Of a stretch of DNA of 64,000 bases, positions 19,301 to 33,708 are shown in pieces. A model generated the notes under the pieces. It had not been told where the DNA came from, did not search any database, and saw only the letters and a program-made list of their open reading frames with translations. Origin of the DNA: Minisyncoccota bacterium (GTDB lineage: Bacteria > Patescibacteriota > Minisyncoccia > JAHISW01 > Tagabacteraceae); NCBI GenBank assembly GCA_028711505.1, contig JAQTSC010000001.1:56447-120446 (forward strand), in the 5' to 3' direction. The position numbers and the translations under genes are program-made. How positions within the stretch are numbered: the first letter of the stretch is position 1; every line of letters begins with the position of its first letter.

Positions 19301-20116
19301 GTGAGCGGCAATACTTTTACGAATAATGCCGGTGATGCGATTTTATCCTTCGCTTCCGTGGGAGAATTCACGAATAACACGGCTTCCGGAAATTTAAGAA
19401 ACAGCGTCAGCATTTTTGGAAACATTACCGAACCCGGAGAAAATCTTTTTTTGAAGGCCGACAATCTTGCTTATTATTTTATGCCGGGAGAAAATATTCA
19501 GGTTTCAACTTCTTCGTCTTTGACCATTGAAAAGGGAGCCGTTGTAAAAAGCGATGGAAAACCGCTTTGGGTTTATGGAAATCTTGTTATTGCGGGAGAA
19601 AATTCCGGAGATGTTATTTTCACTTCGTTTTATGACGATACCGCGGCTGGCGATTCAAACGCGGATATGGCACTAAGTTCAGCCGCTCCGGGGCAATTTG
19701 CCGGAATTGAAATTAAGACGGGCGCTTTTCTTCGGGCCAAGGGCTTTGAAATGCGATATTCCGGACACGGGAATTTTGAGGGCGGTAATTCCGCCGGTAT
19801 GGAAATTTTGGGCGGAGTAGCCGATATTTCAAACGCGGTTTTTAGCCAGAATTACGCTCATGGAATTTTTGCCCAAAATTCACCCTCGCTTAAAATTTCA
19901 AACACCAGCTTTAAAAATCACACTATAACCTCGCCATACGGAGTGAAAGCCGCTTTGGCTGTTTATAGCACCATCGCTACGTTTTCAAACATTACTTTTG
20001 AAAATAACTTGATTGGTGTGATAGGGAATTCCGAATCGGTTTTTACAATAGACCCATTGGATTCTATAATTTGGACGAATAATACGGAAAATATGTTGCC
20101 CGTGGATTTATTTTGA
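16322..20116 (+). CDS. Giant secreted multidomain protein: zinc-dependent phospholipase C / P1-nuclease-like N-domain, Pro/Gln-rich linker, Ig/Fn3-like module, lamin-tail domain (LTD), C-terminal right-handed beta-helix repeats
   Basis: Signal peptide MKKAILLFIIFSPLLFSRAVFA. NHFYDP and HLLQDMAVPDH motifs resemble Zn-PLC (alpha-toxin has DHFWDP). PQILPQILPQ linker. LTD signature INEIAWGGTSGRPNDEWVELYN...LANWTL. Multiple NN(I/T)F..N..G(I/A) parallel beta-helix repeats over roughly aa 770-1264. Confidence 0.65.
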   Translation: MKKAILLFIIFSPLLFSRAVFAYNDTNTHPALTDETIDFYNSISENKLTDEEKEWIISGAEGEDTPPRWTNHFYDPVYDEGFTGERGPSNIINELSGKYSDVWLSVEDAVSAKIWSQNQELQAKYRLYKGNKTWEKAIYEYVKNNNKQEAFYSLGFVLHLLQDMAVPDHTRNDSHPPTDGSPYENYCVGFNRNNFSIQDKIKGNQPASLTSLDNYFDYLANYSNKYFFSKDTINDEKYENPKIIKVEGDYGYGPDNRGNEFKIVGATREIKNGELKISYFLRTQEEKVFESYWSRLSTEAVLSGAGVIELFFSEAEKAKNNQNLLEEPPQEKSAIVSIFMGDFSFAGEYFRMGKLANGAKDWFSNTFNNFASALMSPFYGKNNLNSGLANVVFSESSEAEPPAQSAYDDEIEQPQILPQILPQETIQAFETQTQETSAEIEVLEEILPEAVITEVIPEPEQIPDFLKTIPIPPIAMGGGGSPSVGSTVLPQTNSTQNSSNQPESSSFVSAPPEPPADTTPPDISFEIAECADSFSEEGCVIAPQIIHLSWQSVAGDIEEFELTINGTAQALATTSTSTEFSAIQDNAAHSFSIRAKDSSDNYSDPQSIDIEIFSAPIVINEIAWGGTSGRPNDEWVELYNKSSSAINLANWTLSSADSEPYIILSGKISQKGYCLLERTDDNTISDIAADLIYTGALNNTGDDHLTLYFASTTIDQTPLGNWPAGTSAGFSMERYDSKTSGDNPSNWLTNDTPIANGLASGPEFYKIAGTPKQRNSANYLVNKNQNIFSDIVLKKSESPYFIDGTVINVSASATLTIEPGVVIKFHNDAGLKIDGKILAQGTENDKIVFTSIMDDEYGGDTNGADATTTLPYPGSWFGVVVSETAPAGSIFDYAILRYAGKYYTGQTQERALLASKGSVITVSNSIFEYSKVYGLKLAGSNSLVKNNIFRNNNTAGITSPKAALYAGSCLPTISGNLFEKNNAGIYLADAPGIVSGNTFTNNAGDAILSFASVGEFTNNTASGNLRNSVSIFGNITEPGENLFLKADNLAYYFMPGENIQVSTSSSLTIEKGAVVKSDGKPLWVYGNLVIAGENSGDVIFTSFYDDTAAGDSNADMALSSAAPGQFAGIEIKTGAFLRAKGFEMRYSGHGNFEGGNSAGMEILGGVADISNAVFSQNYAHGIFAQNSPSLKISNTSFKNHTITSPYGVKAALAVYSTIATFSNITFENNLIGVIGNSESVFTIDPLDSIIWTNNTENMLPVDLF

Positions 20117-20265
20117 CGGGCAAGAAATCATTTTCCGCTCGTGTTCCTCTCGTACATTTTGCTTTTTTTCTTCAATAAGGCTTTTTTACGGCGCTGGACA
20201 TTTTGTTTCGGCTTGCTAATATTTTTGCAGATTGACAATTTCAATTCAAAAGGAGAGGAGGGGTT

Positions 20266-20595
20266 ATGAAGATTTCGGAATATGCGGATTTTCAGGAAGC
20301 GGTTCTTTCTTTTCAGCCGTTGGACAAAGAATTTATAAGTGTTCGCCATGAACTCGATCCTACGGAAGAAATAAGACCGCATTATCATCCTAAAGCCACG
20401 GAGTGGATTATTGTTTGCGAAGGCACTTTTGATGTTCAAATCGGGGACGAAGCGCTTACCTTTTATAGCGTTTCGCCCGGCGAGTTTTTGGTGATAGAAA
20501 TTCCAAAAAAAGAGCCGCATACTTTTTACGCGCAAAAAAAGACGAAATATCATGTATATCGGGAAAGGAAGGACAGAATAATTTACTGCAAATAA
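20266..20595 (+). CDS. Cupin-domain protein 1
   Basis: 109 aa with strong RBS AGGAGAGGAGGGG. Two-His cupin motif HYHPKATEWIIVCEGTFDV...PGEFLVIEIPKKEPHTFY. Confidence 0.7.
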   Translation: MKISEYADFQEAVLSFQPLDKEFISVRHELDPTEEIRPHYHPKATEWIIVCEGTFDVQIGDEALTFYSVSPGEFLVIEIPKKEPHTFYAQKKTKYHVYRERKDRIIYCK

Positions 20596-20615
20596 AAAAC
20601 AAGGAGGATCTTTGG

Positions 20616-20978
20616 GTGATAAAAACGGTTATAGGCGTCAAAAAATTGCCATTAACTTCCAATGTATGCAAGCAGGCTGTAAGAGAGGTCATTAATCTTA
20701 ACCGGGCAAGCGTTGCCCATGTGGAAGTGCAGCCGGGAGATGCATCTCTTTTGCACAGACATAAAATCTTTACTCAGCTCTATTACATTTTGGAAGGCAG
20801 GGGCAGGATGTATGTTGGCGGACGCGGTGATTTTCCGGTGGCTAAAGACACTTTGATTTGGATAGCTCCGGGAAGGCCGCACAAATTGGAAAATACGGGC
20901 AGAAAGATTTTAAGCCATTTGGTCATCTCTATTCCCCCATTCAGTCAAACCGATGTGGAGGTAATTGATGAGCAATAA
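20616..20978 (+). CDS. Cupin-domain protein 2
   Basis: GTG start with RBS AAGGAGG 8 nt upstream. HRHKIFTQLYYILEGRGRMYV...IWIAPGRPHKLENTG cupin barrel. Confidence 0.65.
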   Translation: MIKTVIGVKKLPLTSNVCKQAVREVINLNRASVAHVEVQPGDASLLHRHKIFTQLYYILEGRGRMYVGGRGDFPVAKDTLIWIAPGRPHKLENTGRKILSHLVISIPPFSQTDVEVIDEQ

Positions 20979-21345
20979 ATCGTACGTCGGAAAAAGAAAA
21001 AAGGGAGGTTTTTCTGTTGCCAAAGACGGCGCTTTTATTTCTGAATTTGAATGGCCTGGCAATTCTAAGATTCGGAAAACAAGCACCACCTGCGGTCGTC
21101 TCAATCCAGGGCAAAAAGCAAAGCTTCATCGCCATGAGGTTTCCGAAGAAATGTGTTATGTGCTATCAGGTCATGGCGAGATAAAGGTGGGTGAGATTGT
21201 AGAAAAAATAGGAAAAGGTGATGTTGTCTGCATACCCGCCCGCGCTGCTCACTCGCTTAAAAACATCAGTCAAAAGAAACTTTTGAAAGTTTTAGCTTTT
21301 TATTCTCCCATGTGTACGGACGGCAGCACTACTTTTCTTGAATAG
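20965..21345 (+). CDS. Cupin-domain protein 3
   Basis: Overlaps cupin 2 by 14 nt, with RBS GGAGG. HRHEVSEEMCYVLSGHGEIKVG...VCIPARAAHSLKN cupin barrel. Confidence 0.7.
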   Translation: MMSNKSYVGKRKKGGFSVAKDGAFISEFEWPGNSKIRKTSTTCGRLNPGQKAKLHRHEVSEEMCYVLSGHGEIKVGEIVEKIGKGDVVCIPARAAHSLKNISQKKLLKVLAFYSPMCTDGSTTFLE

Positions 21346-21363
21346 CTGAACTGTTTTAGGGTA

Positions 21364-21391
21364 TTGACAGATTTTTATGGGTAAGTATAAT
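21364..21391 (+). promoter_or_regulatory. Sigma70-type promoter (TTGACA - 16 nt - TATAAT)
   Basis: Consensus -35 and -10 hexamers read directly at 21364-21369 and 21386-21391. Confidence 0.55.
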
Positions 21392-21631
21392 AATTTTAGA
21401 ATCTTAAAAAAGAAGGGAGGTGAAAAACATACTGTAAAGCGTAAGCGGCTGCAGGTCCCCGGCGGTGTTTAAATAACACTTTTCACCCATCCGGGCTGGT
21501 GTTGCCGAACCCATTTTTTGGGAGGACATTTATTATGTGTCGTTACCAAGGGCCCTTAGACTATGGCTAGCGTTTTGATTCTAGCGTCTCTTCTTTTTAT
21601 GTTTTTGTGATGATGCGAGTACTCTCGCGGC
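21392..21631 (+). ncRNA. Candidate structured leader / small RNA of unassigned family between the consensus promoter and a strong terminator
   Basis: GC-rich stems in an AT-rich background (CCCGGCGGTG...CACCCATCCGGG; GCGAGTACTCTCGC). Two tiny ORFs with GGGAGG RBSs (the clearer one is MCRYQGPLDYG). Ends at the terminator at 21632-21670, about 55 nt before the FecR-domain gene start. No match to SRP, RNase P or tmRNA motifs that I could recognise. Confidence 0.25.
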
Positions 21632-21670
21632 GGGGTGTCCGGATTTTTCCTGGGCACCCCCTTTTTTTAT
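21632..21670 (+). terminator. Rho-independent terminator (GGGGTGTCC...GGGCACCCC + T7)
   Basis: 9-bp GC stem followed by CTTTTTTTATTT. Confidence 0.75.
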
Positions 21671-21725
21671 TTGTTTTGGGTTTTTAAAAAGCGTAAAATT
21701 CAGAATATAGAAACAAAAGATAAAA

Positions 21726-23123
21726 ATGAAGCATAAATTTATTTTTGGTTTTATCGCGTTTATTTTAATTTCCGCCGCTGGGGGCGCGGCTGTGCTTGTT
21801 AATCATTACAAAAAAGCAAGAATCGGGGCTTCGGAGGACGGCGGCGTCGCGCAAAATATTCAAGTTTCAAAACCATGGGTGGAAGTGTTAAAGCCGAACG
21901 TTTACGCGTCTGTTGAAAGCGGCGAAAAAAAATCTTTGCAGACCGGAGATGAAATTGATTCCGGCTATACCGTAGAGACCGACACATGGGGTTTGGCGAA
22001 CATTTATTTTCCGGATGGCTCGGTGGCGCGCCTTGATTCCGGAACGCAGATTTTTTTGGAAGAAGGCGAATACAGCGATTCAGACCAAAGTCTGAAAGTA
22101 AAAATATCTTTAAGCGCCGGCAGGGTGTGGTCTAAAATAATAGAACTTGCCACACCCGATTCGCTTTGGGAAGTGAAAACAACGAATGCGGTTGCCACTG
22201 TGCGCGGCACCGCTTTCGGTTTTGAACACATAGACGGAAAATCCAGCGTCGTCGGTTCTGAAAATCAGGTGGAGCTGGCGCCGATTGACCCGGACACGAA
22301 AGAAATTTTAACCGACAAAAAAGTAATTATTTCGCCGAATAAAATAGTTGAATTGAAAAGGCAGGATTTGGGAGAAATTAAATCAGGCAAAATCGCCATC
22401 GCGGATAAAGTGAAAGAAGCAGGGCCTGAAGTTTTGGAAAAGGAATGGGTAAAACGCGCCGCGGCGTCCGATGTCGTTTTAAACGAAAAAATTAAAGAAA
22501 TAAAACAAAGGGTGGAAGAAAACAGAGGCGAGGATATAAATAAGGAAGAATTGAAAAAAGAAATCAAGCAGGAAATTCGCAATGAAATCAAAAAAGACGC
22601 GATAAAACCTTTTATTCAGGAAATAGAAAAGAGGAGGATTGAGAAAGAAGAGTCAAAGCAAAAGTCAAAAGATAATATTTTGGAAAATAAAAATATTCAG
22701 AGCGAAGAGAAAAAAATTTTAAAACCTCAAACCGAAGGCGGGCAAGCGGGAACGGGCGCTGGAAACCAGGGAACAAAAGAATCTTTAAAGCCGATTAAAT
22801 TATTGGTAAGACCCGCGGATTTTTCCGGTGAAATAAAAGAAGGAGAGAGAATAACTTTTCAGGCGGTGCTTATCATGGCCGACAATTCGGAAAAAATCGT
22901 TACCGAAGGCGTAAAGTGGCAAGTTCTTGGGCAAATGGGAAAAATGGAGCGGCCCGGGGTTTTTTATGCCGAGCTTGATTCGACGATTTCCGAGTTTGGG
23001 GAAGCGTCAGGCGCGGTAATAGCGGTTTGGGAAAGCGAAGACGGAACTGTAAATTTTTTGGCAAAAACGAAAATTTTTAAAGTGAGAGCCCGCGTTGAAG
23101 AAACAACTGACACCCGCGGATAA
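21726..23123 (+). CDS. Membrane-anchored FecR-domain protein with Lys/Glu-rich coiled-coil and C-terminal Ig-like region
   Basis: N-terminal TM helix. FecR-like beta segment (DSGYTVETDTWGLANIYFPDGSVARLDSGTQIF...VATVRGTAFGF). KEIKQEIRNEIKKD charged repeats. Confidence 0.55.
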   Translation: MKHKFIFGFIAFILISAAGGAAVLVNHYKKARIGASEDGGVAQNIQVSKPWVEVLKPNVYASVESGEKKSLQTGDEIDSGYTVETDTWGLANIYFPDGSVARLDSGTQIFLEEGEYSDSDQSLKVKISLSAGRVWSKIIELATPDSLWEVKTTNAVATVRGTAFGFEHIDGKSSVVGSENQVELAPIDPDTKEILTDKKVIISPNKIVELKRQDLGEIKSGKIAIADKVKEAGPEVLEKEWVKRAAASDVVLNEKIKEIKQRVEENRGEDINKEELKKEIKQEIRNEIKKDAIKPFIQEIEKRRIEKEESKQKSKDNILENKNIQSEEKKILKPQTEGGQAGTGAGNQGTKESLKPIKLLVRPADFSGEIKEGERITFQAVLIMADNSEKIVTEGVKWQVLGQMGKMERPGVFYAELDSTISEFGEASGAVIAVWESEDGTVNFLAKTKIFKVRARVEETTDTRG

Positions 23124-23124
23124 T

Positions 23125-24882
23125 ATGAAATCTAAAATATACTATTTTATTATTGCCTCGCTTGCCGGCGTTTTGGTTTGTTTTTCTTTTTATTTCGGGA
23201 TTTTTTCCGGACTTGAAGTTTTTTTTGAAGATTTGTTTTTCGCGCCGAAGCCGGTGAGCGGAGATTTTGTGATTGTTTCGATTGACGACGAGTCTTTGTC
23301 GCGTATCGGTCAGTGGCCGTGGCCGCGCGAGGTTTTTGCAAAAGCTCTTCTGGAGATGGAAAAAAATACCCCGCTTGCCGCAGGGATGGACATTGTTTTT
23401 TCGGAACTTTCTTCAAATGGAGCTGAAGACGACGAAAAGCTGGCGTCTGCTTTGGGAAAAATTTCTTATCCCGTTGTCTTGGCAAGCGAAGCGCAAAATA
23501 TTTTTTTAAGCCAGGACGGGACAATTACGGCTTCGGAATTTATAAAACCGCTGGATAGTTTTACAAATGAAAAAAACGTAAGTTTGGGGCATGTGAATTT
23601 GATTTTAGACAGAGATAATGTGGCGAGAAAAATCCCTTTTTTGATTTCTGAAAAAAGTCCCGAAGGAATCGAATCCCAGATGCCGTTTGCTTATGAAATT
23701 GTTAAAAAAACCGGGAAAAATATCAGCAGTGAGCGGACGCTTGAAGGCGTAAACCGCATTGTTTATTCATCTTTGCCCGGAACGATAAAAAGAATTCCTT
23801 TTTGGCGTGTTTTGGAAGGGCAGGTTTCGGGCGAATTGAAAGACAAAATTGTTTTCATTGGCGCGACGGCGCCGGATCTTCATGACGATAAACCTGTTCC
23901 GAATGCCAGGGGAAAAACGATGGCGGGTGTTGAAATACAAGCAAATGTCGCGAACATGCTTATTTTCGGTTATCGTTTGGTTCCGCTTGGCAAGTTCTAT
24001 TCCTTTTTGTGGATTTTTATCAGCGCGCTGTTTCCGGTTATTTTTATTTTGTTGTTCAGGCGTTTTCTTTCCGCGCTGTCCGGTGTTTTGATTTTGGGAA
24101 TTTTATATATTATTTTTTGCGCGGTCCTTTTTGACCTTGGAGTAAGCGCCAGCGTTTTGCACATAAGTTTGTCGTGGCTTCTTTCTTCCGCGGGACTTTT
24201 CGGATTCAGACATTTTTCCGGAGAAAAAGACAAACTTCAGCTTAAGCGGATTTTTTCCAAATATGTTTCCGCCGGAGTTTTGGAAGAAATTTTAAGCAAT
24301 CCGAAAAAGGTCGCGCTTGGCGGAGAAGAAAAAGAAATTACGGTTTTGTTTTCCGACATAAGGGGATTTACTTCCATTTCGGAAAAAACTCCGCCGAAAG
24401 AACTTGTTAGAATTTTAAATAAATATTTTTCGGCGATGACGGAAGAAATTTTGAAACAGGGCGGAGTTTTGGATAAATATATAGGCGATGCGATAATGGC
24501 TTTTTGGGGAGCTCCTTTGGAAGAGCCGGACCAGGCGGATAACGCTTTGAGAGCGTCAAAAAACATGATGAAAAGGCTGAAAATTCTAAATGAGGAGTTT
24601 AAGGCCGCCGGAGACCCGGAAATAAACATAGGAATAGGGCTTTGTTCGGGCATGGCGGTGGTGGGAAACGTAGGTTCGGAAGAAAGGTTTGATTATACGG
24701 CGATAGGTGATACGGTGAACGCGGCTTCGCGGCTTGAAGGGCTTACGAAAGAATATCAAGTAAAAATAATTTTGAGCGAAAGCGTGAAAGCTAAGGCAAA
24801 AAACGATTATGATTTTAAATACCTCGGAGCGGCGGCGGTAAAAGGGAAAGACGAGCCGATAAAAATTTACACCGTCATTTAA
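23125..24882 (+). CDS. CHASE2 sensor-domain class III adenylate/guanylate cyclase
   Basis: ATG 23125 sits 1 nt after the upstream stop. Periplasmic CHASE2-like domain (VIVSIDDESLSRIGQWPWPR), TM block, then cyclase core (ITVLFSDIRGFTSISE...KYIGDAIMAFWGAP...GIGLCSGMAVVGNVGS). Confidence 0.8.
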   Translation: MKSKIYYFIIASLAGVLVCFSFYFGIFSGLEVFFEDLFFAPKPVSGDFVIVSIDDESLSRIGQWPWPREVFAKALLEMEKNTPLAAGMDIVFSELSSNGAEDDEKLASALGKISYPVVLASEAQNIFLSQDGTITASEFIKPLDSFTNEKNVSLGHVNLILDRDNVARKIPFLISEKSPEGIESQMPFAYEIVKKTGKNISSERTLEGVNRIVYSSLPGTIKRIPFWRVLEGQVSGELKDKIVFIGATAPDLHDDKPVPNARGKTMAGVEIQANVANMLIFGYRLVPLGKFYSFLWIFISALFPVIFILLFRRFLSALSGVLILGILYIIFCAVLFDLGVSASVLHISLSWLLSSAGLFGFRHFSGEKDKLQLKRIFSKYVSAGVLEEILSNPKKVALGGEEKEITVLFSDIRGFTSISEKTPPKELVRILNKYFSAMTEEILKQGGVLDKYIGDAIMAFWGAPLEEPDQADNALRASKNMMKRLKILNEEFKAAGDPEINIGIGLCSGMAVVGNVGSEERFDYTAIGDTVNAASRLEGLTKEYQVKIILSESVKAKAKNDYDFKYLGAAAVKGKDEPIKIYTVI

Positions 24883-24946
24883 ATATCCACATTTTTCGCC
24901 GCCTCCGCTGTCTTATGTTTTTAAAATCGGATATAATCATTTTATT

Positions 24947-25561: not shown

Positions 25562-25685
25562 AGTTGACAAAGTAAGAAGTTTGTCGGGAAGATAGACGAA
25601 AGCATAATGAAGAGAAACTTTTAAAGCTTGAAGGTCGTTTCAATAGATGAAGGAACGTCGCTATAAAATAAGGCGACGCTCACAA

Positions 25686-25716
25686 AAACCCCGCGAATAG
25701 GCGGGGTTTTTGTGTT
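25686..25716 (+). terminator. Rho-independent terminator (AAAACCCCGC...GCGGGGTTTT)
   Basis: 10-bp stem plus TTTTTGTGTTGTTTT downstream of the GtrA-like gene. Confidence 0.75.
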
Positions 25717-25723
25717 GTTTTGA

Positions 25724-25776
25724 GTAAAAAAAGAGCCCAGCACCTTTATTGGCAAAAGCCTAAAAGGTGCTGGGCG
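25724..25776 (-). terminator. Minus-strand terminator (CCCAGCACCTTT...AAAGGTGCTGGG + T-run on minus)
   Basis: 12-bp stem. The T-tract (CTCTTTTTTT) is present only on the minus strand. Immediately 3' of the 21-aa ORF. Confidence 0.6.
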
Positions 25777-25778
25777 AG

Positions 25779-25844
25779 TCAGCAGCCGCATTCGCTGCCG
25801 CAGTTCATGGCCAAAGTTCCATGGATTATCAGCCTGTCTCTCAT
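25779..25844 (-). CDS. Candidate 21-aa Cys-rich micro-protein (MRDRLIIHGTLAMNCGSECGC)
   Basis: RBS AAGGAGG 9 nt upstream of ATG. Candidate promoter on minus (TTGTTT - 16 nt - TATAAT). Own terminator directly downstream. Below the ORF-track size cutoff. Confidence 0.3.
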   Translation of the reverse strand: MRDRLIIHGTLAMNCGSECGC

Positions 25845-25959
25845 GTTTGTAAGCCTCCTTTCTTAGGATAGAGCAACTCTGTTTGTATTATATTACAAAA
25901 TTTTGTTAAAACAAGCGGCGGGCTTTTTTTGTTGCCGTTTTTAATTTAATATAAAAACA

Positions 25960-27587: not shown

Positions 27588-27636
27588 TTAGAAGGAAGGG
27601 GAAAAATAATAATAAAAACTAATTTGACCCTAAACC

Positions 27637-27707
27637 TGCGGGGTCGTCTAGCGGTAGGACATCGCCCTTTGGAGGCGAGTACCTTGGTTCGAATCCAAGC
27701 CCCGCAG
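27637..27707 (+). tRNA. tRNA-Gln (anticodon TTG), CCA not encoded
   Basis: Manual cloverleaf. Acceptor TGCGGGG/CCCCGCA, D-arm GTCT..GGAC, anticodon stem TCGCC/GGCGA with loop CTTTGGA (U33, TTG, G37), T-arm CTTGG-TTCGAAT-CCAAG, discriminator G. Confidence 0.8.
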
Positions 27708-27734
27708 GTTTGCGGTCAAATTGTCGCGGGATCG

Positions 27735-27754
27735 CCTGCCTGCCGGCAGGCAGG
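27735..27754. repeat. Perfect 20-nt GC-rich palindrome CCTGCCTGCCGGCAGGCAGG
   Basis: Read directly. Sits between the tRNA-Gln and its truncated duplicate. Related copies lie at 46663-46683 and 46770-46790 inside uvrA. Confidence 0.7.
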
Positions 27755-27807
27755 TCTAGCGGTAGGACATCGCCCTTTGGAGGCGAGTATCTTGGTTCGA
27801 ATCCAAG
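27754..27807 (+). pseudogene. Truncated tRNA-Gln duplicate (D-arm to T-arm only, no acceptor stem)
   Basis: 54 nt identical, apart from one C>T, to the 27646-27699 core of the tRNA-Gln. The 5' flank (GGCAGGCAG) and 3' flank (TTCGATT) cannot pair. An 8-bp hairpin TTCGATTT...AAATCGAA follows. Confidence 0.55.
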
Positions 27808-33186: not shown

Positions 33187-33708
33187 TTATGCGTGGGAGT
33201 GCGATGAAATAGAAACTACTTTGCCGGGGATTTTTTTACTGTCTTTTCCCTCCTCTGTGCGGTTGAACAATAATTTTTGCAGAATTTCGTTATGTAAATC
33301 TTCTTCAACAAAAAACAAGGGATATTCCATCGGGCGGGTTTGGATGAACATGCTCTTTGCCAGCGATAAAGCTGTTACGCAATAACCGACCGTGATGGTG
33401 TTTTCCTCTATGTCCGCGATTTCTTGGACGGAAAGAAGAACTGTTTCGCGTTTTTCTCCCAGTTCGATTTTAAGGAAGGCTGCCAGTTCAATTGATTCTT
33501 CTTCCGATTCGTGTTTGTCTTTCTCTCTGCTTCTGAAAGAAAGTTCACACCTTCGTATTCCGGACCATAATATGTTCAGGTTTTCGTCGCTAAGCCCCAA
33601 TGCCTCTCTATATTCTTTTGAATGGTTTAAAATTATGTCCCGATTTTCTTGCAGTCTTTTCTTCATTCTGCAAACCATCTTTTGAATATCGTCTTTATAT
33701 CCGGGCAT
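33187..33708 (-). CDS. Hypothetical acidic cytoplasmic protein, C-terminus ...ISSHSHA
   Basis: 173-aa ORF with no recognisable family motif. Bounded by terminator hairpins on both sides. Confidence 0.5.
   Translation of the reverse strand: MPGYKDDIQKMVCRMKKRLQENRDIILNHSKEYREALGLSDENLNILWSGIRRCELSFRSREKDKHESEEESIELAAFLKIELGEKRETVLLSVQEIADIEENTITVGYCVTALSLAKSMFIQTRPMEYPLFFVEEDLHNEILQKLLFNRTEEGKDSKKIPGKVVSISSHSHA

Follow-up and report, generated by a model that had tools for sequence, protein, structure and literature searches.

What is encoded in the 380 nt that separate a run of cupin genes from a FecR-domain gene in the genome of this ultra-small, uncultivated member of the Patescibacteria: a regulatory leader of the FecR gene, or a transcription unit in its own right? 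The reduced genomes of Patescibacteria encode few regulators, and to our knowledge the regulatory RNAs of these CPR bacteria are almost unexplored; our literature search returned nothing relevant on Patescibacteria riboswitches or structured RNAs or on leaders of FecR/CHASE2 genes. A verified small RNA or attenuator beside a FecR gene and a CHASE2 cyclase gene, which are among few signalling modules in the CPR, would be a useful entry point, if true. The clustering of FecR-domain and CHASE2 cyclase genes is itself an already known signalling module (PMC9239204). We analyzed a 64-kb stretch of DNA around this spacer (hereafter, the window), in which the cupin, FecR and CHASE2 cyclase genes and the element described below all lie on the plus strand; a Logan contig from SRR22315508 also carries the FecR gene and the element, and the FecR and DnaX proteins are identical to entries from a MAG labelled Candidatus Pacebacteria. 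The setting is as follows.

20042-20070, plus strand: promoter of the cupin operon, 11/12 match
20266-21345, plus strand: three tandem cupin genes, each with a strong Shine-Dalgarno (SD) motif (starts at 20266, 20616 and 20965; last gene 20965-21345)
21346-21725: the spacer under study, 380 nt, from the end of the third cupin gene to the FecR-domain gene
21726-23123, plus strand: FecR-domain gene, ATG at 21726
23095-24882, plus strand: gene for a CHASE2 and class III cyclase protein, following the FecR gene

An earlier reading made from the sequence alone (the sequence-only reading) had pointed to a consensus promoter, TTGACA-16-TATAAT, and to a strong intrinsic terminator with a T7 tail about 55 nt before the FecR gene. 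Both features stood up to closer analysis, and they bound the element.

21364-21391, plus strand: sigma-70-type promoter, 12/12 match, made up of TTGACA (21364-21369), a 16-nt spacer and TATAAT (21386-21391)
21398-21668, plus strand: predicted transcript of ~270 nt, placed from the promoter and terminator, with a putative start at ~21398-21399
21632-21668, plus strand: intrinsic terminator, GGGGTGTCCGGATTTTTCCTGGGCACCCC followed by C and T7 (hairpin 21632-21660, T7 21662-21668), with an 11-bp stem that includes 8 G-C pairs and a 7-nt loop

The promoter is the sole perfect match in the 64 kb when both strands are scanned, with three 11/12 matches elsewhere; by our own rough estimate, which is not the output of a tool, about 0.02-0.05 perfect matches would be expected by chance. 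Near-consensus sites precede a minus-strand gene (2896-2869, ahead of 1789-2853) and the cupin operon (20042-20070), and because these matches sit upstream of real genes, consensus-like boxes appear to be in use in this genome. Promoter and terminator are about 234 nt apart. The terminator hairpin is worth -22.8 kcal/mol with a pair probability of 1.0 and leaves 57 nt to the FecR ATG at 21726. Its reverse complement has no T run, so it is expected to act on the plus strand only, and it is also the earliest terminator for the cupin operon, with none before 21632. The suggestion that the stems are unusually GC-rich for an AT-rich genome went too far: GC content is 41.8% over the window and 46.7% in the predicted transcript, a value like that of coding DNA, and it falls to 29-33% in gene-free spacers.

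A perfect promoter directly before a strong terminator also fits a leader or attenuator, and this counts against regarding the element as an independent gene. The element would then act in cis as the 5' leader of the FecR/CHASE2-cyclase operon, with the perfect promoter belonging to the operon and the terminator serving as an attenuator that is read through in response to a ligand (a riboswitch), through a protein or by constitutive leak. The order of the parts, with a promoter, a 234-nt structured region, a terminator, 57 nt and a same-strand gene, is the classic one for an attenuator.

Searches for known RNA families gave this alternative no help. Both at the gathering thresholds of Rfam 15 and at E<=10 with permissive filters, the element matches no family, riboswitches and leaders included; the only sub-threshold matches, to RsaF (18.8 bits), Phe_leader (17.2) and the S15 leader (11.2), fall on the terminator and the A/T-rich spacer. 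Over the whole window Rfam returned tRNAs and junk matches only, and ARAGORN called no tmRNA. These searches agree with the sequence-only reading, which had seen no match to SRP, RNase P, tmRNA, 6S or riboswitch cores, and the element is thus not recognizable as a riboswitch, leader, 6S, SRP, RNase P or tmRNA. It does have what is expected of an independent small RNA gene, namely its own promoter and a Rho-independent terminator on the same strand and no long ORF, the longest being 41 aa.

Elsewhere in the window, a partial tRNA-like Rfam match (40 bits, model positions 9-63) lies at 27753-27807, 45 nt after tRNA-Gln (27636-27708); it is not called by ARAGORN and may represent a tRNA copy that is truncated or has degenerated.

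Two other identities were considered for the element and rejected. For a decayed gene, tblastn of the neighboring proteins against the element and a Pfam search of its small ORFs returned nothing. For a MITE or other repeat, a second copy of the element was found neither in the 64-kb window nor in 90 Patescibacteria loci, nor in plasmid or phage collections, and the combination of multiple copies and terminal inverted repeats that marks a MITE was not found in the 64 kb of this genome that were covered. In a metagenome scan, an 18-mer taken from the core had 54 matches, all of them in contigs of 50-74% GC without extended similarity, which identifies them as chance matches.

Structure prediction yielded two long-range helices, a loosely folded interior and a pair of hairpins at the 3' end, the second of which is the terminator.

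21407-21421, plus strand: 5' arm of predicted helix P1, AAAAAGAAGGGAGGU, a purine tract with the first GGGAGG (21415-21420); pairs with 21584-21598 at a probability of 0.91
21584-21598, plus strand: 3' arm of P1, GCGUCUCUUCUUUUU, a pyrimidine tract
21435-21442, plus strand: 5' arm of predicted helix P2, UAAAGCGU; pairs with 21570-21577 at a probability of 0.82
21570-21577, plus strand: 3' arm of P2, GCGUUUUG, which shares one base with the stop codon of a tiny ORF (the last base of that codon)
21443-21569, plus strand: interior of the fold, poorly defined, with small predicted hairpins at 21464-21480, 21510-21522 and 21525-21541
21548-21557, plus strand: 10-nt perfect palindrome, AAGGGCCCTT, within the tiny ORF, read from the sequence
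21615-21628, plus strand: small hairpin GCGAG-UACU-CUCGC adjoining the terminator, pair probability 1.0

The arms of P1 correspond to an inverted repeat, I1, of 23 nt and 74%. Pair probabilities in the interior are 0.3-0.6, but that of the hairpin at 21525-21541 is given as 0.98; the ensemble diversity is 58. The full 272 nt fold with an MFE of -91.2 kcal/mol (z = -3.0; 1 of 200 shuffles as good), and the element ranks second among the 119 windows of a coarse folding scan. Most of this full-length signal comes from the terminator, and the core is only marginally above shuffles: without the terminator, the 207-nt core has z = -1.7 (10 of 200 shuffles as good) and its reverse strand z = -1.3.

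Just past P1, a 13-nt segment at 21602-21614 (TTTTTGTGATGAT) is 92% complementary to 21802-21814 (ATCATTACAAAAA) within the FecR coding region. This complementarity could be due to chance; were the RNA to act on the FecR mRNA, it could mark where the two pair.

The predicted fold also bears on whether the element is a housekeeping RNA (6S, SRP, RNase P or tmRNA) so divergent in Patescibacteria that its family model fails to detect it. A consensus promoter and a strong terminator are typical of abundant stable RNAs, and the pairing of the 5' with the 3' region of the core recalls 6S RNA. The fold is nevertheless not a rod with a central bubble but has several branches, neither the permissive family search (E<=10) nor ARAGORN brought up a candidate, and a lineage-specific block that relatives lack at this locus, where the element lies (see below), would be an odd place for a housekeeping gene. 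We find this identity hardly credible.

Attenuation by a cis-acting leader also requires an alternative to the terminator fold, and whether such an antiterminator pairing could be drawn was one of the points on which the sequence-only reading was to be judged. A single candidate was found.

21490-21507, plus strand: candidate antiterminator segment, the only one; predicted to pair with the 5' arm of the terminator (21628-21643) at -20.9 kcal/mol

The pairing can be drawn, and its energy of -20.9 kcal/mol stands against -22.8 kcal/mol for the terminator; the segment is otherwise paired within the core, which gives a 1:2 / 2:3 / 3:4 logic of the kind that a leader would use. However, an equal or better energy is reached by 120 of 1000 dinucleotide shuffles (12%) and by 46 of 275 real genome windows (17%), which puts the pairing at chance level, and the segment lies ~120 nt from the terminator with hairpins between the two. 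As 12% of shuffles do as well, the fact that an antiterminator pairing can be drawn is no evidence.

The sequence-only reading had further proposed comparing the orthologous intergenic region in related genomes. We assembled 83 loci, made up of 80 FecR loci from GTDB species genomes (found by a profile scan) and the contigs of the three closest FecR homologues, and searched them with blastn, nhmmer and a covariance model, R1, which was built from the element alone (a single sequence; 200 positions, 47 pairs). No similar sequence or structure was found in the 83 loci besides the element itself, the three closest homologues (43-45% identity) included, and seven syntenic loci described below hold no counterpart, so that the comparison went against a conserved leader. 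An exact-protein scan of GTDB genomes found nothing, and the closest FecR homologue among 5.8 billion proteins is 45% identical; with the nearest FecR compared this distant, the lack of conservation is weak evidence. In the contigs of the three closest homologues the upstream genes are unrelated (ATP-cone, an unnamed gene and NYN), as are the spacers. Most of the 44 FecR homologues examined have upstream spacers of less than 100 nt. The absence of a similar RNA from the 83 loci and the mostly short spacers together indicate that a long structured leader is not a property of the FecR/CHASE2 family.

The long upstream spacers that we inspected had contents of their own. Five of them (L028, L048, L049, L051 and L058) carry a minus-strand tRNA, on the strand opposite to the FecR homologue and ~300-900 nt upstream of it, a recurrent neighborhood in Patescibacteria. 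A sixth (L023) has a similar layout to the element, with a promoter, ~380 nt, a terminator and FecR, but encodes a small SD-preceded protein of ~60 aa and was rejected as a counterpart.

How the FecR gene itself is likely to be transcribed can be judged from the start regions of its neighbors. Of the native genes among the 43 ORFs in the window, nearly all start after A/T-rich sequence that lacks an SD, in many cases with a -10-like box within ~10-25 nt of the ATG, and this suggests that they are expressed from short-leader or leaderless mRNAs. Strong GGAGG-type SDs are found at the three cupin genes and at the minus-strand gene 33187-33708 (start at 33708); set against the SD-less native genes, they hint that these genes are foreign or are expressed in another way. 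The FecR start region is of the native type: A/T-rich and without an SD, with a -10-like box near.

21671-21699, plus strand: candidate FecR promoter, TTGTTT-17-TAAAAT, 8/12 match, read from the sequence, with a -10 box that ends 26 nt before the ATG

Given this native-type upstream region, an independent FecR promoter is plausible, and since native leaders appear to be short, the 330-nt FecR 5' UTR that a cis-acting leader entails would be atypical in this genome. In favor of the leader, our promoter scan found no site of at least 9/12 between the terminator and the FecR ATG, the candidate lying below this 9/12 cut-off; A/T-rich spacers often contain 8/12 matches, so FecR mRNA could still arise chiefly by read-through from the perfect promoter. 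On balance, we regard a cis-acting leader of the FecR/CHASE2-cyclase operon as unlikely, though a serious contender.

Two tiny ORFs with GGGAGG ribosome-binding sites had also been proposed within the element. GGGAGG does occur twice, at 21415 and 21520, but the first has no usable start codon downstream (the nearest reading is CTG-TAA), which leaves one RBS-preceded tiny ORF, not two.

21520-21525, plus strand: second GGGAGG, Shine-Dalgarno-like, 9 nt ahead of the ATG at 21535
21535-21570, plus strand: tiny ORF MCRYQGPLDYG, 11 codons and a stop, ATG at 21535

The element might therefore be a short mRNA or leader-peptide unit, in which MCRYQGPLDYG is a micro-peptide or in which its translation remodels P2 and P1 and so affects downstream events. 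The spacing of the second GGGAGG favors this possibility, as does the rarity of the motif: the 64 kb hold 13 on the plus strand and 5 on the minus strand, and two of them fall within this 270 nt. A ribosome terminating at the stop codon would be expected to open P2 and P1, since the 3' arm of P2 includes one base of that codon, and a comparable SD-bearing small peptide unit lies at 25779-25844 on the minus strand. On the other side, the eleven codons contain neither repeated codons nor a run of regulatory ones and show no conservation, and Pfam searches of all small ORFs of the spacer, including the frame-2 stretch that ends in MCRYQGPLDYG, gave no match. The SD and AUG are predicted to be partly sequestered by local hairpins, most native genes do not use an SD, and a 5' UTR of 137 nt would be left unexplained, as would the 60 nt that separate the stop codon from the terminator. 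A leader-peptide attenuator has an amino-acid-enriched ORF that overlaps the alternative hairpins, whereas MCRYQGPLDYG is not such an ORF: it does not overlap the candidate alternative pairing, and it sits 3' of the candidate antiterminator segment and 60 nt 5' of the terminator. With that segment upstream of the ORF, translation would not control it. We consider a peptide-based unit improbable.

The history of the locus was approached through synteny. The upstream cupin was of no use as an anchor, with no homologue sharing words among 5.8 billion proteins. DnaX, 4.3 kb downstream, is 71-77% identical in relatives and gave seven syntenic loci (L139-L145), which retain homologues of a DUF8128 protein, a 164-aa protein, a large LTD/beta-helix protein, GtrA and DnaX. 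The cupins, FecR, CHASE2 and the element are found in none of the seven (0/7 by tblastn, blastn, nhmmer and R1), and in L142 GtrA starts 12 nt past the LTD protein. This absence identifies a block of ~4.8 kb (20117-24946), with the element in its middle, as lineage-specific and located at a variable spot. Other genes occupy the variable spot in relatives, for example MFS and CDP-OH-P-transferase genes.

An insertion of this kind also raises the possibility that the element has no function and is a junction, a ~380-nt scar between separately acquired modules (the cupin operon and FecR/CHASE2), such as the 5' remnant of a lost gene, whose terminator insulates the two operons. This would be in keeping with the lack of block 20117-24946 at all seven syntenic loci, with SD motifs that the cupin genes and the element have and native genes do not, with core folding near background, and with the failure to find a homologue in the loci, in the metagenome 18-mer scan or in the plasmid and phage searches. 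A 12/12 promoter and a very strong terminator would, however, be unlikely to persist by chance in a reduced genome; no protein remnant is detectable, and both P1 and P2 are long, well-defined helices. We think a functionless junction doubtful, while giving it real weight.

The spacer between GtrA and DnaX (25562-25959) is a further variable site: it is 398 nt here versus 2-38 nt in five of six distinct relatives, with two extra genes in the sixth, and no other window of the folding scan folds more stably. On the plus strand a weak promoter-like site (25581-25608) is followed by a terminator (25681-25714), and on the minus strand there is a mini-gene with its own TATAAT promoter, an SD (AAAGGAGG) and a strong terminator. 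The 21-codon ORF of this mini-gene (25779-25844, minus strand), MRDRLIIHGTLAMNCGSECGC, has a Cys-rich C-terminus and could be a gene for a small peptide or a RiPP-like precursor. As this 21-aa unit is bounded by a promoter, an SD and a terminator and is absent in relatives, compact stand-alone units would seem to occur in lineage-specific spacers here, a point in favor of the element being one.

Of what the sequence-only reading had proposed, the promoter-to-terminator layout has thus been borne out; two of its three explanations for that layout, a riboswitch and a leader-peptide attenuator, are unsupported by every test that could be run, and the third, an independent small RNA, remains viable. 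We tentatively favor the view, at a probability of about 0.45, that the element forms a short transcription unit by itself, as an orphan small RNA gene ~270 nt long that possibly contains an 11-codon ORF and whose terminator serves the cupin operon as well. In support of a small RNA gene, the 12/12 promoter is unique in 64 kb and the terminator is strong and unidirectional, and folding places the element in the top two of 119 windows, with predicted probabilities of 0.91 for P1 and 0.82 for P2. The coding evidence points the same way, with a longest ORF of 41 aa, no Pfam match and no decayed copy of a neighboring gene. FecR homologues elsewhere appear without such a leader, and the SD-like motifs that the element shares with the cupins, unlike the FecR start, argue for a separate unit. 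Counting against it, no homologue was found, so no covariation supports any helix, and the core has a predicted z of only -1.7 with an ill-defined interior.

If the element is such a small RNA gene, transcription would start at ~21398 from the perfect sigma-70 consensus promoter. The RNA would be closed by a 14-bp helix, in which the purine tract with its SD-like GGGAGG pairs with the pyrimidine tract, followed by a second helix of 8 bp, and its loosely structured interior would hold the one SD-preceded 11-codon ORF. Its 3' end would consist of two adjacent hairpins, of which the second, tailed by U7, is the strong intrinsic terminator. The terminator at 21632 would also halt read-through from the three-cupin operon and so insulate the cupins from FecR/CHASE2, and the FecR/CHASE2-cyclase operon would depend chiefly on a weaker promoter of its own, TTGTTT-17-TAAAAT, within the 57 nt that separate the terminator from FecR, in line with the short, A/T-rich leaders without an SD that native genes have here. 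That the element is transcribed, and separately from the FecR operon, we infer from the sequence, and the same holds for any role of the RNA or peptide in the cell.

A more far-reaching proposal would see in the element the first representative of a novel type of structured regulatory RNA from Patescibacteria, either a ligand-sensing leader that gates the FecR/CHASE2 cyclic-nucleotide signalling operon or an RNA that acts in trans on translation through its SD-like and anti-SD-like tracts, in a genome where most native genes do without an SD; this is very improbable. At present the element is a single orphan locus, and its main practical value is as a candidate pair of strong promoter and terminator. 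It also marks a lineage-specific inserted gene block, in which the SD-bearing inserted genes, set against SD-less native ones, give a hint of horizontal origin and of unusual rules of translation initiation in this lineage.

Comparison with known systems places the element among them as follows. Like 6S RNA, it has a strong promoter, a ~190-nt core closed by end pairing and a terminator, but its predicted fold is branched and has no central bubble between long stems, it matches no 6S model, and it is not conserved at the syntenic locus. With the trp, his and pheA leader-peptide attenuators it shares a short SD-preceded ORF upstream of a terminator, whereas this ORF has no run of codons for a single amino acid and no overlap with segments 1/2; the match to Phe_leader reaches 17 bits against a threshold of 55 bits and covers only the terminator and the A/T-rich spacer. 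Attenuating riboswitches and leaders resemble it in their promoter, their structured region with a long P1-like helix, their terminator and the same-strand gene that follows. It differs from them in having no conserved aptamer and no Rfam match, in an antiterminator that is distant and at chance level, in its absence from orthologous operons and in a plausible separate promoter for the gene. Stand-alone bacterial sRNA genes, with a sigma-70 promoter, a Rho-independent terminator and a length of 50-400 nt, differ from the element in that it is without homologues or an Rfam sRNA family. They are matched by its own consensus promoter, its U-tailed terminator after a second hairpin, its length of ~270 nt, its intergenic position and the lack of a long ORF.
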